A DNA stretch of 64,000 nucleotides from an uncultured archaeon (GTDB taxonomy: Archaea; Iainarchaeota; Iainarchaeia; Iainarchaeales; CAZILS01). This document shows, in pieces, positions 28,259 to 38,773 of the stretch. The DNA lies in NCBI GenBank assembly GCA_964540145.1, contig CAZILS010000003.1, positions 41,799 through 105,798 on the forward strand. Direction: 5' to 3'. The translations under genes were made by a program, and so were the position numbers. Position 1 is the first letter of the stretch; the number at the start of each line of letters is the position of its first letter. The notes beneath the pieces were generated by a model. The model was given only the letters and a program-made list of their open reading frames with translations, made no database searches and was not told the origin of the DNA.

Positions 28259-29087
28259 CTTTAGGCAGCTCAAGAAGCAGCTCGCTCGCCAAAAACCCAT
28301 ACCCCTTCTTCTTAAGGAGAATATCGCCGGCCTTGCCGTTCACATAGGCAGCCGCGCACCCGGACTCAAACAGGCTATTTCCCAACGCAATGAACCCGGC
28401 GCAAAGCCCCGAGAGGATATCCCCGGTTCCGCCAACGCTCATGCCCTCGTTGCCTGTCCTGTTCACCCTAACCTTATTTCCATCAGAGATAACGTCAACC
28501 ATCCCTTTCAGGAGAATAACGCAATTCTTCCCTTTCGCGGCTTCCTTAACCAAATCAACATTCTTCTTCAGGGAATTGGATGCCTCTTTTCCGAAACAAA
28601 TTTCAAATTCTTTCGCATGCGGGGTAAGGAGAACCTCTCCATTGAAATTCATTCCCTTAACCGCCTTGATTGCATCTGCGTCTATAACCGCCGGAATTTT
28701 CAGGCCTTTAACGACAGCCCTCACAAATTTCTTCGTGCCGGCGCCCTGCCCCAGCCCGGGCCCTATAAGCACAGCATCAAATCCCTTTGAAAGTTTCAGC
28801 ACATCCTTAACATGCCTTTCCCCGAAAACTTTCCCTGAAAACTTTTTTGTTATCAGGTCAGGGCTCATGCAGTTTACAGCCCATGCGGCCTTTCCGGGAG
28901 CCGCAACAGTCACTAAATCAACCCCGCTCCTCAAGGATGCGAGCGCCGCATTTCCCGAAAGTGCGACAGCACCCACATAATCCTCGCTCCCCCCCACAAC
29001 AAGAACCTTCCCAAACTGCCCCTTGTGCGCGTCTTTTCTTCTCTTCTTCACGCACTTCCTTACATCGGCTGCACTTGTTGAAATCAT
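28236..29087 (-). CDS. nnrD: ADP-dependent NAD(P)H-hydrate dehydratase
   Basis: HKGQFGKVLVVGGS, IGPGLG, IDADA, TPHAKEF, GGTGDILSG. Confidence 0.92.
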   Translation of the reverse strand: MISTSAADVRKCVKKRRKDAHKGQFGKVLVVGGSEDYVGAVALSGNAALASLRSGVDLVTVAAPGKAAWAVNCMSPDLITKKFSGKVFGERHVKDVLKLSKGFDAVLIGPGLGQGAGTKKFVRAVVKGLKIPAVIDADAIKAVKGMNFNGEVLLTPHAKEFEICFGKEASNSLKKNVDLVKEAAKGKNCVILLKGMVDVISDGNKVRVNRTGNEGMSVGGTGDILSGLCAGFIALGNSLFESGCAAAYVNGKAGDILLKKKGYGFLASELLLELPKVIFSKKG

Positions 29088-30976
29088 CCTTTCATAACCT
29101 TCTCAATTTCTTTCCTAAGCAGGGCGCTTACCTCCCCGCCCGCAGCCTTCCCCCTAAGCTCCTTCATAACATCTCCCATCAGGGCGCCAATTGCGTGCAT
29201 TCCCTTCTCCTTCACCATTGCCTCGTTTTTTGAAACAACCCTTGCAACTACTTTTTCAACATCCTCACATCCTGCCTTCTCAATACCTATGCCCTTCACA
29301 ACTTCCTTGAGGCTTTTTTCCCGGGCTTTGCTCCACTCCCCCAAAACCTTAAGCGCAATGTCCTGCGTAATCTCCTTCTTTCTCATCGCCGCAAGCACAC
29401 CTTCGACCATCCTATCGTTTATGCGCTCAATGTTAACCCCTTCCCTGCGCAGCTGCACCAAACCCTCAAGAAGCAGAACCGCTGCCGTTGTTGGATTATG
29501 GCCTTCCCCGACAAGCCTTTCAAACAACAGGGCATGGTTGCTTAGCTTCATTTTCTCAGCCAAACCGGGGCTAAGATTAAACTTTGTTATGTATAAGTTC
29601 TTCCTCTCGTCTGCGCTTTTCGGCAAACTCTTCCTTATTTCTGCGAGCTTCCCCCCATCAATCTTGACATGCCCTAAATCTGTTTCAGGGTACATCCTTG
29701 CCGCCCCCGGCAAAGGCCTGCTGTACTCTGTGTTCCCGTTGTCCAAAGCGTTCCTTGTCTCCTCGGGAACCCCCTTCAACGCAACCCTGCACCTTTCCGC
29801 AACAACTGCCAATGCTTTTTTTGCCCTGTCCTCAGGAGCGCAGACCAAAACAAAGTTGTCATTCTCCCCAACCCCGAGCAATTTCTTAACACCCTCAATT
29901 TCCATAGGCGTTATTCCATATGCCGGGAGCTCATCCCCGTGAAAAATTCCCCGCAAACCGGCCCTTGCCTTGACATATGAAGCAAGCTCGCTTCCAAACC
30001 TTCTTCCCTCTTGCAACTCCTTCCCGAGCAAACCCGCGAAGCCGGCTATCTTTAAACCCAAAACAGAACTATTGTTCTTCAGCCCGTCCTTAAATATTTT
30101 GCATTCGGTGTTCGAAAAAATTTTCGCAAGGTCTTTTCCTTCCTCCGCAAGGCCTTTCCCTTTCACACCCCTCTTTGCCAACTCATCCTTAACCTCAAGC
30201 AGCTTAACCTGCCTTTCAACTTCTCTCCTGACATACTCCGGAATTAAATCAAGCTGCTGCACACCCTTTATCTCAACCCTTGCCCCCTGCGCAATAGAAA
30301 CATTCAAATCTTGCCTTATAGTCCCCAGGCCCCTCTTCGCCTTTCCCGTAATCCTGAACAGCCCCCCTATCTCCTTTGCAGCCTTTCCCGCATCTTCGGG
30401 GCTTTTTATGCCTGGGGCTGTTGCCAGCTCTATCAACGGAATCCCAAGCCTATCAAGCCTGTACGTAACCTCGCTTTCCTTCCTTTCCATCGGCCTTGCC
30501 GCATCCTCCTCAAGGGCAAGCCCCTGCACACCTATACTGCCTCCTTCGTAATCAAGAACCCCCCCTTCCGAAACAAGCATCGTCCTCTGGAAACCGCTTG
30601 TGTTAGAACCATCAATAACCTGCTTCCTCATGACAACAAGCTCATCAAGAATATGGGCCTTCAGCATGAGCGCAATCTGGAGAGTAACATCCAGGGCTTC
30701 GCTGTCCGCAGGCATCGGCGGCTCTTCATCCGCCTCTATCAAACAAGTGCTGTCGGAATAGCCCTCGTAGAAAAAAGTCTTGTTTTTTTTGAATGCTTCA
30801 AGCGCCGCTTTGTCAAACTCCCCAAGCTCTGAAGCGACAATCCTGAGTTTCCTGCTGAATTTCAGGCCGGGGGCATCATCTCTCAAAATAGAGGGGCACC
30901 GGCAAAACAGCTTCCCGGTATCGAGCTGCTGGTGCACTTCCAGGCCGCACTTTAGCCCCAGTTTCCCGTAATCCAT
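29084..30976 (-). CDS. gatE: Glu-tRNA(Gln) amidotransferase subunit E
   Basis: [53 protein letters not shown]. Confidence 0.97.
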
Positions 30977-31064
30977 GGAAATTCTCCCTGTTACCATTTG
31001 GCTGAAAAGGGTTTTTATAGTGTGGCATTTATCCCTTAAATCACTTTCTATTCATACTAGTATT

Positions 31065-31418: not shown

Positions 31419-31979
31419 TTATTTCATTTTTCCTAAAATCCGGCACATTTTGTCGATTGTCCGGTTCACGGTTTGCAGCCCTATTTCATCGTCCATCGCA
31501 GGAGCCTGCAGTATTCCCCCGAAGTGGTTGTCATCCCCCAAGGGAACCATTGAATGAATGTGCATAACCGCATGCATCCCCGCAACAACAAGTTCCTGCC
31601 CGCCGTTCCTGCTGTTCCCAACCGCAACCGCCCCCCCAACCTTGTCCCTTAAGAGAACGCCCTGCCTCCTGAAAAGAACAGACCTGTCCAAAAAACATTT
31701 CATCTGCCCGCTCATGTTCCCCATGTATGTGGGGCTAACCAGCAACAGGCCGTCCGCACTTTCAATCGTTTCAATCAATGAATTGAAATCATCGTTCTGC
31801 GAACATTTCTTCGCTTTTTTGCAGGCATCGCATGCGATGCAGGGCCCGACCTTCTTTTCGCCGAGCTTAATCACTTCCGCCTCAAAACCCCTTTCCCTAA
31901 TCCTCTTTTCGGAGTACGCGGCAATCTTCTCCGAGTTCTGCCCCTTCCGCGGGCTGCCTGAAACAATTACAATCCTCAC
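31419..31979 (-). CDS. Iron-sulfur flavoprotein / flavodoxin family
   Basis: SGSPR..NS, CIACDAC..C, SPTYMG, RNGGQE. Confidence 0.88.
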   Translation of the reverse strand: MRIVIVSGSPRKGQNSEKIAAYSEKRIRERGFEAEVIKLGEKKVGPCIACDACKKAKKCSQNDDFNSLIETIESADGLLLVSPTYMGNMSGQMKCFLDRSVLFRRQGVLLRDKVGGAVAVGNSRNGGQELVVAGMHAVMHIHSMVPLGDDNHFGGILQAPAMDDEIGLQTVNRTIDKMCRILGKMK

Positions 31980-32236
31980 TTTCCTTGCCTCCTCTTCCTT
32001 ATAACCTTAATCAGGAAATACAGTGCGGCAAACGCCCAGACAAGCTCCAGGGTAAGGAAGACAAGCGAGCCGATATCCCAAGCGTAAAACCCAAGCATGA
32101 GAGAACCGGCCAAATTAAGGCTGTTGAAGATGAATGTGTCCTTCCTGTACTGCTTCATGTGCTCAAGCACAAACGCAACAAGCAGCAGGAGCAACCCGGC
32201 AATCCCAACCCAAAGCGCATATATCTCAATCACCAC
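31976..32236 (-). CDS. Small membrane protein (CBU_0592-like)
   Basis: GLLLLLVAF..FNSLNLAGS..FLTLELVW; start codon uncertain. Confidence 0.7.
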   Translation of the reverse strand: MVIEIYALWVGIAGLLLLLVAFVLEHMKQYRKDTFIFNSLNLAGSLMLGFYAWDIGSLVFLTLELVWAFAALYFLIKVIRKRRQGK

Positions 32237-32237
32237 A

Positions 32238-33539
32238 TCACCACTCAAAAACACAGGGGTTTGAGCACTTTGTTATTTCCCCCCGAAGGTTCTCCGCAAA
32301 CATTTCCCTCGCCTTCGCCTTCCCGTAATTCCCAAGCAACCAGGCAAGCTTCACAAACGCAGTTTCAGGGAGCATGTCCTCGCCATAAACAACGCCCTGC
32401 TCCGCAACCTTCCTCAAATTGGTGTAGACCTTGTCGTTCACCCTCCCGTTCAGGCATTGCGAAGCCATCCCCACAACACAGCCTGCCTTGACAAGTTTCC
32501 CAATCGCCTTCACAAACTCATCCTTCTTCCCGATAGGGGTGTGGCCCAGGCCTGTGCCCTCGATCACAAGGCCCTTGTACTTTTGCATCCTGTAAAAGTC
32601 AATCATTTTTGTGCTTATCCCCGGGTGGAGTTTTACCATTCCGACCTTCTTCTCGAACTTTTCCATAAGCCTGAATTTCCCATTCGGTTTCCCTGGTTTC
32701 TTAACAAACTCTATTTTCCCCGTCTTGTAGTCTACCCTTGCAATCTCCCTGCTGTTGATTGCCTTGAACGCATCCCTTCTTGAGGTGTGCATCTTCCTTG
32801 TTTTTGTTCCAGGGAGTATTGAACAGTACTCATCCCCCGTATCTCCGTGCATGCAGGCCGCAACACCCGCAAAATCCGAGTCCGCGATGAACCTTGCCGC
32901 ACAAATCATATTCATGCCCGCATCGCTGCTCCCCCTATCGGTGCTTCTTTGCGCCCCAACCAGGAGGACAGGAACATCGACATTCTCAAGCATGAATGAA
33001 AGCATCGCCGCGCTGTATCCTAAAGTGTCTGTGCCGTGCCCGATGATAACCCCTTTGCAGCCTTTCTTGACCTCCTTGGCAACAGCCTTCGCAATCTGCG
33101 AGTAATCCCCAAGATCCATGTCCTCGGACATTTTGTTGAAGACAAGGGTTGTCCTGACATTTGCTATGTCTCCAATCTCCGGAAATATTGAGACAAGGTC
33201 TTCCGGCTCAAAGAAGCTGTTTACCGCCCCTGTTGCGTAGTCAACGCGGGAGGCGATTGTCCCCCCTGTATGCACAATTGCTATTTCAGGCAGCCCGGGC
33301 TTTTTTCTCAGCTTAACCGGCTTGGCCTTCCCAACTTTTTTCCCCTTGCCGAGCACGCTTACCGCAGTTATCTTCGAAACAGCAATCCCTGTGTTGTAGC
33401 CGCTCTTGAGCTTGAGGAACAATGATTCCTTTTCCTCGGAAGGAACAATGGTTCCCCTGAACACAGCCTTGCCGCACTCAACCTCGGCTTCCATGCCGAC
33501 TTTGAGGCCGTGCCTGTTCATAAATTTCCCGATGTCCAT
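32238..33539 (-). CDS. gatD: Glu-tRNA(Gln) amidotransferase subunit D
   Basis: LKLKSGYN, TGGTIASRVDY, HGTDT, QRSTDRGSSD, KMHTSRRDAF. Confidence 0.96.
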   Translation of the reverse strand: MDIGKFMNRHGLKVGMEAEVECGKAVFRGTIVPSEEKESLFLKLKSGYNTGIAVSKITAVSVLGKGKKVGKAKPVKLRKKPGLPEIAIVHTGGTIASRVDYATGAVNSFFEPEDLVSIFPEIGDIANVRTTLVFNKMSEDMDLGDYSQIAKAVAKEVKKGCKGVIIGHGTDTLGYSAAMLSFMLENVDVPVLLVGAQRSTDRGSSDAGMNMICAARFIADSDFAGVAACMHGDTGDEYCSILPGTKTRKMHTSRRDAFKAINSREIARVDYKTGKIEFVKKPGKPNGKFRLMEKFEKKVGMVKLHPGISTKMIDFYRMQKYKGLVIEGTGLGHTPIGKKDEFVKAIGKLVKAGCVVGMASQCLNGRVNDKVYTNLRKVAEQGVVYGEDMLPETAFVKLAWLLGNYGKAKAREMFAENLRGEITKCSNPCVFEW

Positions 33540-33577
33540 AAAACCAACCAAAATAAGCCCAAAATCCTTTAATTGTG

Positions 33578-35431
33578 TTATGCCCCCTTCAATATCTCCA
33601 TCCAGCCCAGTACCGCCGGCACATAGTCTTTTGTCTCGGAATAAGGCAGCCCTTCGAGGCTGCACTCCGCCATCGGCCTCCAGCTTTTCTTGCTCTTGTC
33701 GCTGCTTCCGGGCCCTGTGTTGTACGCCGCAATTGCCAGAGGCACAAGCCTTTCCTCATCGCACTGCCTTGTTTTCATAACCTTGTAATATTGCCTGAAG
33801 ATGTCCGCCCCGAGGGACGCATTTATGAAAGGGTCTGTCCGGTCGCTTTCCTTGATGCAGCCGGTGACAATGCCTTTCGCAGCCTGTGCCTGAACGTATT
33901 CCTTCACAGTAGGGTGGTTTGTGTTGCAGAAATGGTATGGCATAACCTGCATCAGACCGATGGCCCCGACATGGCTTTTTATGGTTTCGTTGAATGCGCT
34001 CTCCCTTGCCATTATACCCCTGATAAGGTCTGCATCCAGCCCCTTCCCCGAGGCAACCTGCTGTATCGCCTCTTCGTACTTTGCGGCCTTAGACAGCATT
34101 GCACTTTTGTTCAGGACATGCCCATCATAGAACTCTTGCACCTTGTCCTCCAAAAGAAAACCATTAATTGTAAGCCCGCCATAGCCGGTACTTATTGGAA
34201 TTTCCGGGTCCTGCTCTCCTCCCCCCTCAACACACTTCCCGTTTTCAAGTTTCTCGGTCACAGTATAGGCATAATCATTGCTCCCTATCATCAAGCCTTC
34301 AACTTCCCAATACTCCCACGCCGCGAGGCATTCTTCAGCAGTTTCGCAGTTAACACAGGCATGCTTCCTCCTGCACTTGTCCCCGAACTCCTCTGCTGCA
34401 AGTATCTGCGTTGCATAACACTCCCCGCTCCCTTCGCACACCCCGCCTATGGGACTGCCCCTGCTAGCGTAGGCATAATCCTTGTAGCCAAGCTCAAGTT
34501 CCTTGCCCCTCTCACTCCACCTCTCCAGGCACTCCCATCCGAATTCACAGCCCTCACACCCATAAATTTCCCTGCACTCCCCTTCCCTTTCCTCAATCCC
34601 CATGAACGAGGTTGCCTCACACCCCTCAGTTATGTGTGAAGCGCCCTTAACCCCAAACCTTACCGTCTCCTCTTCATAGCCGGCATCTACCCCTTCAACC
34701 CTCACCTCTGCCTCATATGTCCCGTTCTCGCCTATCCCCGGCTTAAACTCGAAAACCTCTGTTTCTTCCGGAAGGATAAGTTCCCTTACCTCAAGCAATG
34801 GATCTCCATACCTCATCCTTTCTTCAATCCCCGCCCTTACCTCTATCTTGTAAAGCAGGATTTCCGCCTGATAGGCGGCAGCAGTAGTGTTCCCTGTGTT
34901 CTTCACCCCAACCTTCAGCCCTGCCTCTTCCTTGCTTAAATCAAACTCCTCATCATAGCCAACCTCCACTATCCTCACCTGCGCAGGCTCTTCCCCCAGA
35001 TAAACCCTGCAGACATGCAAATTGAATTCAGGTATGCACCTTGCCGCACTTCTCACCTTTGACGCCTCCAGCACAACAAGGTTCCTGTTGGAAACAGCGA
35101 CCCTGCATTCCCCGTAAGCGCCGCATCTTTCAATGCCTCCACATTCATCAACAAGCCCTTCCAAACTGCAGCAAACCGAGGGGTTATTGCAGTGAAGGAT
35201 AACAGACCTCGCGGAGGTGTCGAAGAGCGAGGCATCCATTCCCAAATCCGATTTCAAATCAAGTGTGTAGGGAACATACTGGCCGGGGGTAAGCTCCGAG
35301 ATGCTCAGGCCCTCACCAATAGCCGCAACAGGGTCCTCCGCAGGAAAAAACATCGGCGCAACAAACGCCATGAAAATCCAAAGGAAAGCCGCAGCGGCAA
35401 CCGCATAAACAAGAAGCCGGAACGGATTCAT
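33578..35431 (-). CDS. Membrane-anchored Cys-rich protein with Ig-like domain and C-terminal lytic transglycosylase (SLT/GH23-like) domain
   Basis: N-terminal TM; VKNTGN CARDB-like segment; IMARES, GAIGLMQVMP, AAYNTGPG, ETKDYV. Confidence 0.88.
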   Translation of the reverse strand: MNPFRLLVYAVAAAAFLWIFMAFVAPMFFPAEDPVAAIGEGLSISELTPGQYVPYTLDLKSDLGMDASLFDTSARSVILHCNNPSVCCSLEGLVDECGGIERCGAYGECRVAVSNRNLVVLEASKVRSAARCIPEFNLHVCRVYLGEEPAQVRIVEVGYDEEFDLSKEEAGLKVGVKNTGNTTAAAYQAEILLYKIEVRAGIEERMRYGDPLLEVRELILPEETEVFEFKPGIGENGTYEAEVRVEGVDAGYEEETVRFGVKGASHITEGCEATSFMGIEEREGECREIYGCEGCEFGWECLERWSERGKELELGYKDYAYASRGSPIGGVCEGSGECYATQILAAEEFGDKCRRKHACVNCETAEECLAAWEYWEVEGLMIGSNDYAYTVTEKLENGKCVEGGGEQDPEIPISTGYGGLTINGFLLEDKVQEFYDGHVLNKSAMLSKAAKYEEAIQQVASGKGLDADLIRGIMARESAFNETIKSHVGAIGLMQVMPYHFCNTNHPTVKEYVQAQAAKGIVTGCIKESDRTDPFINASLGADIFRQYYKVMKTRQCDEERLVPLAIAAYNTGPGSSDKSKKSWRPMAECSLEGLPYSETKDYVPAVLGWMEILKGA

Positions 35432-35688
35432 TTTCTCCGCCCCCTTTTCGGCTGCCCAAACTCAAGCCTGACCTGCCAGATAAGCAGCTTCCTAAAAACA
35501 AAGCTCAGCGCAAAAAGCATAACCGAAATTAGGATATAGCTTTGCAGGTCCCCCACCTTATTGAACCAGTCCTTCTTTTCGAACGCCCAGTCGTTGAACA
35601 GCAGGATAAAGTAAGCAACGGCCCCGAGCGTTATCAGGAACAGGAAAATCTTTTCGGCGGTAATCAGCCAGCGCGCCATCCTCTTCAT
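35428..35688 (-). CDS. Small 2-TM membrane protein
   Basis: Stop overlaps the SLT start (ATGA); begins 2 nt after the ligase stop. Confidence 0.7.
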   Translation of the reverse strand: MKRMARWLITAEKIFLFLITLGAVAYFILLFNDWAFEKKDWFNKVGDLQSYILISVMLFALSFVFRKLLIWQVRLEFGQPKRGRRK

Positions 35689-35690
35689 TT

Positions 35691-37535
35691 TTACTCACCC
35701 ACCGATATGTGCTTCTGCGCCTTATACATTTTCTCTATCTCCTTAACTGTTGTTGCCTCTTCTGCTTTTCTGTCCTCCCTCAAAGAAACCATCCTCGGGA
35801 ACCTCAAAGCCAGGCCTTCCCCGGTTTTCTTTTTCCCCGCAGTGTGCATAGGGCTCTTTGTTATCTCATCCGCCTTCACCTCGACAACATACCTCGGCTC
35901 GACCCAGAAATCCGGCTTTATGGTAGAGTCATACCTCGCGGGCTTCTTCCCTGTTTTTATTTTCCCAAGGCCCTTCGCAAACTCCTTCATCTCCTCTTCG
36001 TTAAAGCCGCTGCCGATTTTAGCAATGGTTTTGAACCTGTCTTCCTTCGCGTCATAAACGCCTGTAAGCAATGCCCCCATCCCGAACTTTGCCCTCTGGC
36101 CTTTCCCTTTGTAATAGCCAAGGATTACGGCATCGACAGTGTCATCTAATTCTCCCTTATATGACCTCTTGAGCTTTATCCAGGCGAACTTCCTCGCCCC
36201 CGCAATATAGGGCGCATTCAAATCCTTTGCAATTATCCCCTCCAAGCCCTTTGCTATATTTTCCTCGAAGAAACTTTCAAGCTTTTCAGGGCTGTCGGTA
36301 ATTATGCTTTTTGTCGGCTCTATAACGTCTCCTTCCCCGATAACCTTGGTGATAAGCGCCCTGCGCTCGCTGAATTTCCCGGCCATCAAATTTTTCCCGT
36401 CAAGGTGCATGATATCGAAAATGAAAAGTTTGAGAGGAAACTCCTCCGACATTTTCTTAATTCCATGTTTCCTTTTCCGCTGTATAGTAACCTGAAAAGG
36501 ATGGAACTCCCCGCTCTGCTCGCTGTAGGCAAGCGCCTCCCCCTCGAGAATAGCCTCCTTCGCCTTTATCTGTTTCCTGACCGCTTCCACTAACTCGGGG
36601 AACATGCCTGTCATGTTCTCAGACCTTCTTGAGAAGACGGTAACCTCTTTCCCGAACTTGTGTATCTGCAGCCTGAAACCATCGTACTTGCTCTCGACAG
36701 CGCACTTTCCAATCTTCTTGATAATTTCCTCCGCACTCGGCAGCCTCTCCGCCAGGGTGGGCCTTATCGGTATCCCCGGGGTAATCTCAATCCGGTCCAG
36801 CCCTTTCAGCCCTTTTTCCTTGAGCCTCTCCGCAATCTCCCCAAGGTCTGAATGGATATTGTACTTTGCCTCAATCTGCCCCCTTGCAAAAAACTTGATT
36901 TTCCTGTTTAGTTCCTCTTCCCTCTTCTCCTCCTTTTTTTCCTTCAGCCCCTTTTCAAGTTCCTTGATTTTCCTCCTGTCCTTCTTCACCTCGTCAATGA
37001 GCATTATCGCAAACGCATCCATTATCGTCGGGTCTCCTGTCCCCAGCCTTAAATTTCCAAGCGGAACCCTGACGAGATACCTTGCCTCTTTTGGCGAGGC
37101 GCTGTTAAGCAGCTCGGCAAGCAATTTTATTTTCGTGTCCTGGCTTCCTCTCCCCTCGGTTTTCGCAATCTTCAGCAGGTTGGAAAAAACTTTCTCAAGG
37201 CCGAGCCGCTCCGAAAAAAGTGCCTTCTGTTTTTTGCTCCCCAAAACCTTCTCTGCGGCCAGGCCAAGGTCCCCCAACTCCTTGTACTCCCTGTCAATCT
37301 CCTCCCTCGAGTAGCCCCCAACCCTTGCAATCGCATCCTCGACAAAGTTCTCGCCCATCCCCACATCCAAACCTTCGTAATTCGGCCCCAATTTTCCCTG
37401 GCATAGGTACACCAGCCTCTTAACCTCGCTTGCCTCCGCCTCCCTGAACATTTCCGCAATTATGCCCGTCATGCCAAGCCTTGAGCTGGCCTGCTCTATC
37501 CTTTCAAAGTAGTCCGTTATAGCCGAGAACCTCAT
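35691..37535 (-). CDS. lig: ATP-dependent DNA ligase
   Basis: ESKYDGFRLQIH, EGIIAK, WIKLK, ALRFPR. Confidence 0.97.
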   Translation of the reverse strand: MRFSAITDYFERIEQASSRLGMTGIIAEMFREAEASEVKRLVYLCQGKLGPNYEGLDVGMGENFVEDAIARVGGYSREEIDREYKELGDLGLAAEKVLGSKKQKALFSERLGLEKVFSNLLKIAKTEGRGSQDTKIKLLAELLNSASPKEARYLVRVPLGNLRLGTGDPTIMDAFAIMLIDEVKKDRRKIKELEKGLKEKKEEKREEELNRKIKFFARGQIEAKYNIHSDLGEIAERLKEKGLKGLDRIEITPGIPIRPTLAERLPSAEEIIKKIGKCAVESKYDGFRLQIHKFGKEVTVFSRRSENMTGMFPELVEAVRKQIKAKEAILEGEALAYSEQSGEFHPFQVTIQRKRKHGIKKMSEEFPLKLFIFDIMHLDGKNLMAGKFSERRALITKVIGEGDVIEPTKSIITDSPEKLESFFEENIAKGLEGIIAKDLNAPYIAGARKFAWIKLKRSYKGELDDTVDAVILGYYKGKGQRAKFGMGALLTGVYDAKEDRFKTIAKIGSGFNEEEMKEFAKGLGKIKTGKKPARYDSTIKPDFWVEPRYVVEVKADEITKSPMHTAGKKKTGEGLALRFPRMVSLREDRKAEEATTVKEIEKMYKAQKHISVGE

Positions 37536-37774
37536 CCAAACCGGCTATATATTAGTTTTATTTAAATATAAGGATTAGCTTAAGGTTATATGAAGGTTAG
37601 GGAACCCCCGAAAAGCCCATAGGTGCAACATATATAAACCTTTAGAGCGCAAATAATTATGGATAGCATGGACAGAAGGGAGTGTCTTCCAGTACAGCAA
37701 TTTTTCTTTTAGATTTGTATACTCCCCGGAATGCGATTTTAATTCTTTTGGAAGAAATCTTTCTAATCCGTCAT

Positions 37775-37849
37775 GGGACATTGGTGTAGCCTGGCCTAGC
37801 ATTGTGGCTTTGGGAGCCTCCGACCCCGGTTCAAATCCGGGATGTCCCA
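37775..37849 (+). tRNA. tRNA-Pro(TGG)
   Basis: GGGACAT/ATGTCCC; GTGGC-TTTGGGA-GCCTC (one U-U mismatch); TTCAAAT. Confidence 0.92.
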
Positions 37850-37927
37850 ATCCGTCGCGCCCGGATGGTGCGTCGCCTATACTCTGCCCCCTTGGGCATT
37901 ATATAGGCGTGGCGGCTTCGCCGCATT
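37850..37927 (+). ncRNA. Putative structured tRNA-Pro trailer element, copy 1
   Basis: Three hairpins; 29/35 identity at the 5' end to 38774..38856 with pairing-preserving changes. Confidence 0.6.
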
Positions 37928-38698: not shown

Positions 38699-38773
38699 GG
38701 GGGGGTAGTCTAGCCTGGACCAGGACTCTACCTTGGGGTGGTAGCAACCCGAGTTCAAATCTCGGCCCTCCCA
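38699..38773 (+). tRNA. tRNA-Pro(GGG)
   Basis: GGGGGGG/CCCTCCC; CTACC-TTGGGGT-GGTAG; CCGAG-TTCAAAT-CTCGG. Confidence 0.93.

Follow-up and report, generated by a model that had tools for sequence, protein, structure and literature searches.

Murein hydrolases of bacterial type have been described in several groups of archaea. In the main text of their study, Castelle et al. (2021; PMC8204110) reported extracellular murein-like transglycosylase proteins of up to 3000 amino acids (aa) in Woesearchaeota and Pacearchaeota, proposed a role in attachment to bacterial walls, and cited Rinke 2013 and Castelle 2015 for earlier cases. Vigneron et al. (2022; PMC9723730, main text) found GH23 enzymes in five Woesearchaeota metagenome-assembled genomes (MAGs) and suggested predation, and the same idea is repeated in the main texts of PMC10936187 and PMC11537232. 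Strock et al. (2025; PMC12352652, main text) searched 3706 archaeal genomes and identified modular peptidoglycan hydrolases in 175, with a known wall-binding domain as a requirement, and M23 proteins of Halogranum salarium are reported there to kill Halalkalibacterium halodurans. Here we describe a locus in a 64,000-nucleotide (nt) stretch of DNA from an uncultured archaeon of the order Iainarchaeales (contig CAZILS010000003.1, positions 41,799 to 105,798; hereafter the window), in which one gene encodes a predicted membrane-anchored protein with a lytic transglycosylase domain of the SLT type (the SLT protein). This protein is a further predicted DPANN murein hydrolase, carried on a previously uncatalogued, phylum-wide chassis.

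The idea put forward in a first-pass annotation of the window, an archaeal surface enzyme directed at bacteria, is supported but is not new. Of the 196 genomes of the order, 60 have the Pfam SLT domain, 58 of them with a score over the cut-off, and 18 of the 55 high-quality genomes have it; the open reading frames (ORFs) concerned measure ~200 to 3466 aa. The domain is therefore common in this archaeal order; moreover, the hypothesis that DPANN archaea act on bacteria with murein transglycosylases has been published (PMC8204110, PMC9723730), and bacterial killing by archaeal peptidoglycan hydrolases has been shown (PMC12352652). The new part of the finding is the N-terminal ~330 aa, an uncatalogued and mostly single-copy module that usually stands alone. 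In the main texts of the literature consulted, we found neither this module nor the swapping of its heads described. The source organism is a small (~1 Mb), DPANN-type archaeon; the genome that carries the SLT gene comprises 994 kb in 21 contigs, and the genomes of its relatives range from 0.3 to 1.5 Mb. The gene and the parts of its product, in window coordinates, are as follows.

33578..35431 (-): SLT gene, a 617-aa ORF with an ATG start, encoding a predicted type II membrane protein that consists of the N-terminal module, a second Cys-rich domain, a linker and the SLT head
35348..35425 (-): N-terminal membrane anchor, aa 3-28; a helix in the model and the sole hydrophobic segment (~aa 3-32), with the consensus FKLLVxAIxAxAL
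34991..35344 (-): domain A, aa 30-147; an alpha+beta domain containing 8 Cys, for which solved structures offer no clear counterpart
34640..34990 (-): domain B, aa 148-264; a predicted immunoglobulin (Ig)-like beta sandwich, possibly of CARDB type
34217..34639 (-): domain C, two tandem copies (aa 265-336 and 337-405); Cys-rich, with six Cys each
34100..34216 (-): linker, aa 406-444, between the second copy of domain C and the SLT alignment; no domain assigned
33581..34099 (-): SLT/GH23 lytic transglycosylase head, aa 445-617, supported by Pfam PF01464 and the alignment with Slt70; a Cys-bearing insert lies between GLMQ and AYN
34001..34003 (-): codon (GAG) of Glu477, the predicted catalytic acid/base, aligned with Glu478 of Slt70 chain 1qsa_A

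The Pfam SLT family (PF01464) matched aa 455-583 of the protein with an E value of 1.2e-18 and a score of 67.2 bits, where the cut-off is 21.3; when the whole genome was scanned, the match scored 70.5 bits and proved to be the sole SLT domain of the source genome. The best matches in NCBIfam, a flagellar-assembly lytic transglycosylase and an Slt70-type murein transglycosylase, both fell far under their full-length cut-offs because only one domain matches. In a sequence search of the PDB, the best solved relative was Escherichia coli Slt70 (1qsa; E 8e-8, aa 452-610). The motifs ARES (475-478), GLMQ (492-495), AAYNTG (568-573) and SETKDYV (598-604) all aligned with the motifs of Slt70 in a HMMER alignment, and Glu477-Ser478 lay over Glu478-Ser479 of Slt70, of which we take Glu478 to be the catalytic residue. 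GLMQ, AYNxG and the C-terminal SET..Y are motifs of family-1 lytic transglycosylases. Judged by its motifs, the SLT domain is intact and of family 1 (Slt70-like), and the claim of the first-pass annotation that all four hallmarks are present was borne out by both Pfam and the Slt70 alignment. While the Glu-Ser, GLMQ, AYNxG and SET..YV motifs are common to both proteins, the archaeal protein lacks the superhelical U/L domain of Slt70, has a Cys-bearing insert of ~20 residues between GLMQ and AYN, and is predicted to be anchored in the membrane by its N terminus, in an organism apparently without murein.

The N-terminal part (aa 1-335) was modeled with AlphaFold on an alignment of 27 sequences, with a predicted local distance difference test (pLDDT) score of 92.5. 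The model comprised the membrane helix (3-28), a second helix (34-47), domain A to ~147, the Ig sandwich (148-264) and a small Cys-rich domain C. Domain A also folded alone (pLDDT 90.7), and a fold search with this domain gave no clear match among solved structures (best VIA-align Z of 3.9; best Foldseek E of 0.24). In the domain A region, C81, R131, C132, C141, G146 and P149 were invariant among the 27 sequences. Domain B matched the CARDB domain 3idu (VIA-align Z of 11.3) and domain III of HAP2/Fsx1 (Z of 12-13), with many other Ig-like sandwiches scoring as high as 3idu, and the fold-search matches listed for the whole module were taken up by this Ig domain. As modeled, the fold of domain B is generic Ig-like; Pfam CARDB (PF07705) matched 10 of the 27 modules (best E 2.9e-5), and the SLT protein itself was without a match. 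The duplication of domain C was evident from a local self-alignment (score of 108) in which all six Cys aligned, and relatives have a single copy with invariant C271, C292, C295 and C301. The protein has 24 Cys, distributed as 8 in domain A, 6 in each of the two domain C repeats and 4 in the SLT part. Because there is one N-terminal hydrophobic helix and each domain has an even number of Cys, an exported ectodomain is expected, and the single helix and the Cys pattern would place the stalk and head outside the cell. The hydrophobic segment, the Cys count and the model together agreed with the transmembrane (TM) anchor and the Cys-rich, Ig-like stalk that had been read from the sequence earlier. 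The long N-terminal helix prompted us to consider a type IV pilin-like N terminus as well. A class III signal peptide is a short charged leader that ends in Gly or Ala directly before the hydrophobic helix. The consensus of the 27 sequences, inspected by eye, was xxxxFKLLVxAIxA, with no conserved Gly or Ala before the helix, and this assignment was rejected.

Of 41 related genomes searched with the whole protein, 34 gave matches; these were nearly always limited to aa 1-330 and mostly lay in ORFs of 310-350 aa. A profile of the module (A1, 27 sequences) was then compared with a phylum set of 215 genomes, and at E<=1e-10 it matched 160 of these, mostly as one copy, including 51 of the 58 high-quality genomes; none of the 7 genomes of family f31 and none of the 22 of family f3 had a match. 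Among 1.84 billion representative proteins, the module had 953 matches at E<=1e-3, 275 at E<=1e-10 and 187 at E<=1e-30. Heads, lengths and positions were tabulated for the best 150 of these 953 matches, and the module was N-terminal in all 150. Family f27 differed in copy number, with two or three modules in each of five genomes (G084-G087 and G076), and ORFs of 1150-1441 aa were present in G078, G080, G084 and G085; tm86 (a small protein described below) was on other contigs in this family, and representatives of the long f27 ORFs (P0094, P0123 and P0136) have VWA and integrin-like domains. In one genome (G018), the module was matched in four separate short pieces, in ORFs of 118-614 aa, which may reflect fragmentation, paralogues or pseudogenes.

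Thirty-six of the best 150 members exceed 400 aa, and 16 of these 36 bear a murein hydrolase over the Pfam cut-off. The heads of the 36 long members are as follows.

SLT: 5 of 36, over the Pfam cut-off
SLT plus M23: 1 of 36 (P0095)
M23: 4 of 36, over the Pfam cut-off
NlpC/P60: 3 of 36, over the Pfam cut-off
Amidase_3: 1 of 36, over the Pfam cut-off
Amidase_3 plus NlpC/P60: 1 of 36 (P0018)
Amidase_3 plus M23: 1 of 36 (P0028)
GH73 glucosaminidase: 1 of 36, a sub-threshold match
VWA: 4 of 36 over the cut-off and 1 of 36 below it
No assignable domain: 14 of 36, one of these with an extra CARDB

GH73 is probably among the heads of this chassis: a relative of the sub-threshold member, at 30% identity, matched Autolysin E weakly, the match in the sequence search of the PDB being that of P0011 (GH73; E 0.015). 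The same search with the extension of P0029 found nothing, nor did NCBIfam when eight unassigned C-terminal extensions were compared with it. The two-headed proteins P0095, P0018 and P0028, which have both heads on the same anchor, resemble bifunctional autolysins and phage endolysins in layout. In the genome loci, SLT heads were present in G000, G013, G025 and G039, M23 heads in G011 and G015, and an NlpC/P60 head in G035; unassigned extensions were found in G019, G027 and G003, and 18 members stood alone.

On a FastTree tree of 148 modules, the head labels together required 15 changes (the least possible being 9), fewer than in any of 200 shuffles; branches with good support forced at least three changes each for M23 and for NlpC/P60. 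The SLT heads themselves fell into three groups, made up of the SLT protein with P0002 and P0095, of P0014 with P0016, and of P0006 with P0048, and across these groups likeness was confined to the region around the catalytic motif (E 1e-4 to 1e-8 in a ten-sequence database). Heads have been swapped or acquired more than once on the module, as judged from its tree. The enzymes that alternate in this position differ in the bond that they attack: SLT cuts the glycan of murein, Amidase_3 the amide between N-acetylmuramic acid (MurNAc) and L-Ala, and M23 and NlpC/P60 the peptide. Because all four alternate in one slot, chitin or pseudomurein would be hard to fit as the target. Bacterial peptidoglycan, the target named in the first-pass annotation, thus gained indirect support, since orthologous anchors bear M23, NlpC/P60 and Amidase_3 and the order is without SEDS (see below), and it is the probable substrate. 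Pseudomurein was rejected on established chemistry: its N-acetyltalosaminuronic acid offers no C6 hydroxyl for a 1,6-anhydro ring and no lactyl-L-Ala link.

It might be argued that the SLT head serves as an adhesin only, binding the glycan strands of a bacterium, chitin or another polymer of N-acetylglucosamine (GlcNAc), with catalysis irrelevant or lost. Other members do bear VWA adhesion domains in the same position, the stalk has an Ig-like domain that may be of CARDB type, and the wording in the main text of Castelle et al. is "bind and degrade" (PMC8204110). However, all 7 of the module-borne SLT domains that were aligned have retained the Glu-Ser motif, and the other three motifs are likewise retained here and in those seven, despite deep divergence, and the peptide-bond-specific M23, NlpC/P60 and Amidase_3 enzymes in the same slot point to murein and not to chitin. 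We therefore regard a purely adhesive head as improbable.

The closest relative of the SLT head was the C-terminal SLT domain of a 2727-aa ORF in another genome of the same order (G017; 33-39% identity, E 1e-24 to 1e-32), which also has the Cys-bearing insert, and G053 has a weaker relative in an ORF of 2735 aa. The head had no relative at E<=1e-8 in the remaining genomes of the 215. The likeness between the head on the small chassis and that of the 2727-aa giant indicates that heads have moved between giant surface proteins and small chassis. In a word-indexed protein search, aa 425-617 matched only itself and P0002 at E<=1e-8, the whole protein had four matches and aa 1-335 had one; a profile search was needed because the relatives are too divergent to share 5-mers. 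Comparison with the ESM Atlas returned only generic bacterial and viral SLT clusters for the SLT part and no usable match for aa 1-335. When contigs were scanned, Anaerolineaceae MAGs yielded the only two SLT matches, at 41% over 51 aa and at 26% over 167 aa, and both were too weak for this family to be retained as donor of the head; the libraries searched for a donor carry no taxonomy. Like the giant DPANN transglycosylases (fam00969; PMC8204110, main text), the SLT protein combines a bacterial-type SLT domain with a predicted location at the DPANN cell surface, and the role proposed for it is the same. It differs in size (617 aa, versus up to ~3000) and is without a large multi-domain scaffold, being related to the 2727-aa ORF through the head only; instead, its SLT domain sits on a conserved, anchored module of 330 aa that usually stands alone, and its gene has a fixed position in the core genome after that for DNA ligase.

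Of the 196 genomes of the order, 1 had a SEDS match over the cut-off, and this match was a fragment of 77 aa. This FtsW/RodA fragment shares one small contig (G060:C25) with a strong Mur ligase match (E 3.5e-32), and the contig looks like a bacterial contaminant. Mur_ligase_M was found in 96 of the 196 genomes, including the source genome and almost always as one copy; the same search also matched the murein-free control archaea Methanocaldococcus jannaschii and Haloferax volcanii. Searches for SEDS and Mur ligases thus gave no sign of murein synthesis by the order itself (penicillin-binding proteins/transpeptidases, MurG and MraY were not part of these searches). These results bear on the possibility that the protein is an autolysin, i.e., that the archaeon makes a murein-like polymer which the anchored hydrolase remodels while the cell grows or divides, in the manner of membrane-bound transglycosylases of bacteria. 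In favor of such a role, the gene is part of the core genome, is conserved and mostly single-copy, and lies among housekeeping genes, and a Mur_ligase_M homologue occurs in nearly half of the order and in the source genome. Yet the Mur-ligase-like gene is nearly always single where four would be needed and occurs in archaea without murein, SEDS is represented by that one fragment, and 114 of 150 orthologues are without a hydrolase head and would be ill-suited as an essential autolysin. An autolysin is thus very unlikely.

A further alternative is scavenging, in which digestion of free sacculi or wall debris of dead bacteria would feed an auxotrophic cell that has no specific partner. DPANN genomes are small and their owners dependent on others, dead-cell peptidoglycan has been proposed as an amino acid source for Pacearchaeota (PMC11537232, main text), and the variety of heads would suit complete digestion. 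On the other hand, there is usually one module copy per genome with at most one or two heads, which is no digestive set, and a tethered enzyme would be poorly suited to a dispersed substrate. Moreover, no M23, NlpC/P60, Amidase_3, AnmK or LdcA-type peptidase was found in the source genome, which is 68% complete, and anhydro-muropeptides would have no visible use there; with none of AnmK, an LdcA-type peptidase or further hydrolases found, a pathway for feeding on anhydro-muropeptides gained no support. Scavenging appears unlikely, if somewhat less so than a head that only binds.

The neighboring genes of the SLT gene in the window are as follows.

35428..35688 (-): tm86, encoding an 86-aa protein with two TM segments, a candidate partner; overlaps the start of the SLT gene at ATGA
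35691..37535 (-): ATP-dependent DNA ligase (Pfam DNA_ligase_A_N/M/C), the upstream neighbor
32238..33539 (-): gatD (Pfam Asparaginase and GatD_N), the downstream neighbor
29084-30997 (-): GatE, a core gene further downstream

The start of tm86 lies 2 nt past the stop of the ligase gene; at its other end, the TGA runs into the start codon (ATG) of the SLT gene with a 4-nt overlap (ATGA), and we take tm86 and the SLT gene to be translationally coupled. The longest gatD ORF (32238-33665, minus strand) has a GTG start and an 88-nt overlap with the SLT gene, but gatD homologues align solely from Met43 (nt 33539) onward; Met43, 39 nt downstream of the SLT stop, is probably the true start, and the overlap is then not real. 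The run of archaeal core genes on the same strand, from ligase to gatD, that had been noted in the first reading of the window was recovered from the window ORFs and their Pfam matches. No secretion-system genes adjoin the SLT gene among the window ORFs examined with Pfam. A 92-aa hydrophobic ORF (31976-32254, minus strand) with a weak, sub-cut-off Ycf66_N match (E 0.005) lies between an FMN reductase gene and gatD, and a pair of tRNA-Pro genes (UGG at 37774-37850 and GGG at 38699-38773, plus strand) flanks a methyltransferase-like ORF just upstream of the ligase gene.

In most loci checked, the gene order was DNA ligase, small two-TM protein and module. The module adjoined the ligase gene in 22 of 27 loci, which had been chosen by module match, and was followed by gatD or by a PP-loop gene (Dph6-like, by eye). 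A tm86 homologue lay directly upstream of the module in 19 of 25 loci (13 of 27 by BLAST and 16 of 25 by position, combined). Conversely, among the best 30 places matched by a tm86 profile (A2, 19 sequences), coordinates read by eye showed 28 that adjoined the module, 1 on another contig and 1 in a genome without a module match. The tm86 profile matched 168 of the 215 genomes and 53 of the 58 high-quality ones, with none in the 7 genomes of f31 or the 22 of f3, and hence with the same family-level gaps as the module. This conserved adjacency and the shared presence and absence across families support the earlier suggestion that the small coupled gene may encode a partner. A complex prediction for tm86 (A2) with aa 1-150 of the module (A1) scored 0.00 against a mark of 0.32, without controls, and has no bearing on binding either way. 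At all four SLT loci (G000, G013, G025 and G039) tm86 was directly upstream of the module, and where the module carries M23 or NlpC/P60 (G011 L007, G015 L049 and G035 L034) it was elsewhere in the genome, although these numbers are small. Weak tm86-like matches (E 1e-5 to 1e-9) also occurred in eight genomes of families f34 and f35, which belong to the same class but lie outside the order, and the module was not found there at E<=1e-10.

The integrity of the locus was supported by several lines of evidence. The SLT part matched the neighboring core genes in codon usage and in GC content, which was 0.528 (0.504 in the window as a whole). P0002, a full-length relative of 620 aa with 81% identity and the same architecture, was found on another contig. 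A 71-kb contig from a different assembler (run X1, possibly the source sample) spanned the region with 0 differences, and another sample of that study (X2) yielded a 619-nt contig that was identical over 34063-34681, i.e., aa 250-456, crossing from the stalk into the SLT domain; run X3 contributed small pieces only. The continuous ORF, the matching composition and the X1 and X2 contigs argue against contamination or misassembly, in line with the first-pass annotation. A bacterial or viral fragment misassembled onto archaeal DNA, or the holin-endolysin cassette of an integrated virus, would account for a small TM protein beside a muralytic enzyme, an arrangement like that of lysis cassettes, and the language-model look-alikes of the SLT part in the ESM Atlas are bacterial and viral. 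Against an artefact, the first 330 aa of this single ORF belong to an archaeal family shared by 160 of the phylum's 215 genomes, composition resembles that of the neighbors, P0002 lies on a different contig, the X2 contig crosses the boundary between stalk and head, the same fusion of stalk and SLT recurs in G013, G025 and G039, and the flanking ligase and gatD genes are non-viral. The chance that the fusion is an artefact is therefore negligible. The phage cassette in particular was ruled out by those flanks and by the distribution of the module and of tm86 (160 and 168 of 215 genomes, respectively), which is not sporadic.

The best reading of these data, which we favor with moderate confidence, is that the SLT protein is a contact-dependent, tethered enzyme that opens bacterial walls. 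In such a mechanism, the single N-terminal helix would anchor the protein in the archaeal membrane, and the disulfide-rich stalk, composed of domain A, the Ig-like domain B and the two Cys-rich domains, would hold the transglycosylase outside the cell. The head would most likely cleave the MurNAc-GlcNAc bond of bacterial peptidoglycan, with Glu477 as the putative acid/base. Owing to the tether, it would act solely on a bacterial wall that the archaeon touches, and the outcome could be a local opening or gripping of the sacculus of a host, prey or neighbor. The stalk and the coupled two-TM protein would form a lineage-wide cell-surface chassis, and SLT would be one of several interchangeable, acquired heads. 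Several points weigh against this interpretation. In an intact diderm bacterium, the sacculus is out of reach of a tethered enzyme that has no help, and Pfam found no wall-binding domain in the SLT protein (SLT being its only match) or in any of the 27 modules. The lysozyme-like fold of the head is predicted from its sequence alone, and the source genome is incomplete, as noted above. About three quarters of the best 150 members (the 114) are without a head, and 14 of the 36 long members have no assignable domain. The module tree is weakly supported, with 63 of its 145 inner branches open, and is compatible with a single origin of SLT. Since most members are headless, the chassis would have a function of its own; given that some heads are VWA adhesion domains, we take this function to be contact between cells.

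The enzyme envisaged here has functional parallels in bacteria, where membrane-anchored or machine-associated wall hydrolases include MltG, SpoIID/SpoIIP and the VirB1/PrgK-type proteins of secretion systems. The logic would be common to all of these, in that a membrane-held head cuts the wall only where a machine or a contact needs a gap; whereas the bacterial enzymes cut the wall of their producer, the archaeal producer appears to have none, and the wall would be that of another cell. A bolder proposal, which we offer tentatively and consider possible but doubtful, is that the two-TM protein and the N-terminal module are the core host-contact apparatus of the whole phylum and that its partners are bacteria and not archaea. 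The heads would then be host-range determinants swapped with giant surface proteins, much as phages swap tail lysins or receptor-binding tips, and domain A, as a new fold, would dock the apparatus in the archaeal envelope or recognize the surface of the partner.

The hydrolases surveyed by Strock et al. (PMC12352652, main text) are similar in several respects, namely bacterial murein hydrolase domains on archaeal proteins, shuffled domains and catalytic heads of patchy occurrence. In contrast to those proteins, which are secreted and often plasmid borne, the SLT protein is chromosomal and, by prediction, membrane tethered, on a lineage-wide chassis; the module family is without a known Pfam wall-binding domain and would escape that survey. 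Because surveys that require such a domain miss the module family, archaeal peptidoglycan hydrolases are probably under-counted. The 617-aa protein, or its 190-aa head, is also a small expressible target compared with giants of 2000-3000 aa, and domain A was modeled with confidence and is clearly matched by no solved structure. For most DPANN archaea neither hosts nor lifestyle are known, and here a nearly universal, single-copy surface protein of one phylum has repeatedly acquired murein-specific enzymes. Such repeated acquisition of murein hydrolases constitutes comparative evidence that this lineage has physical dealings with bacteria.

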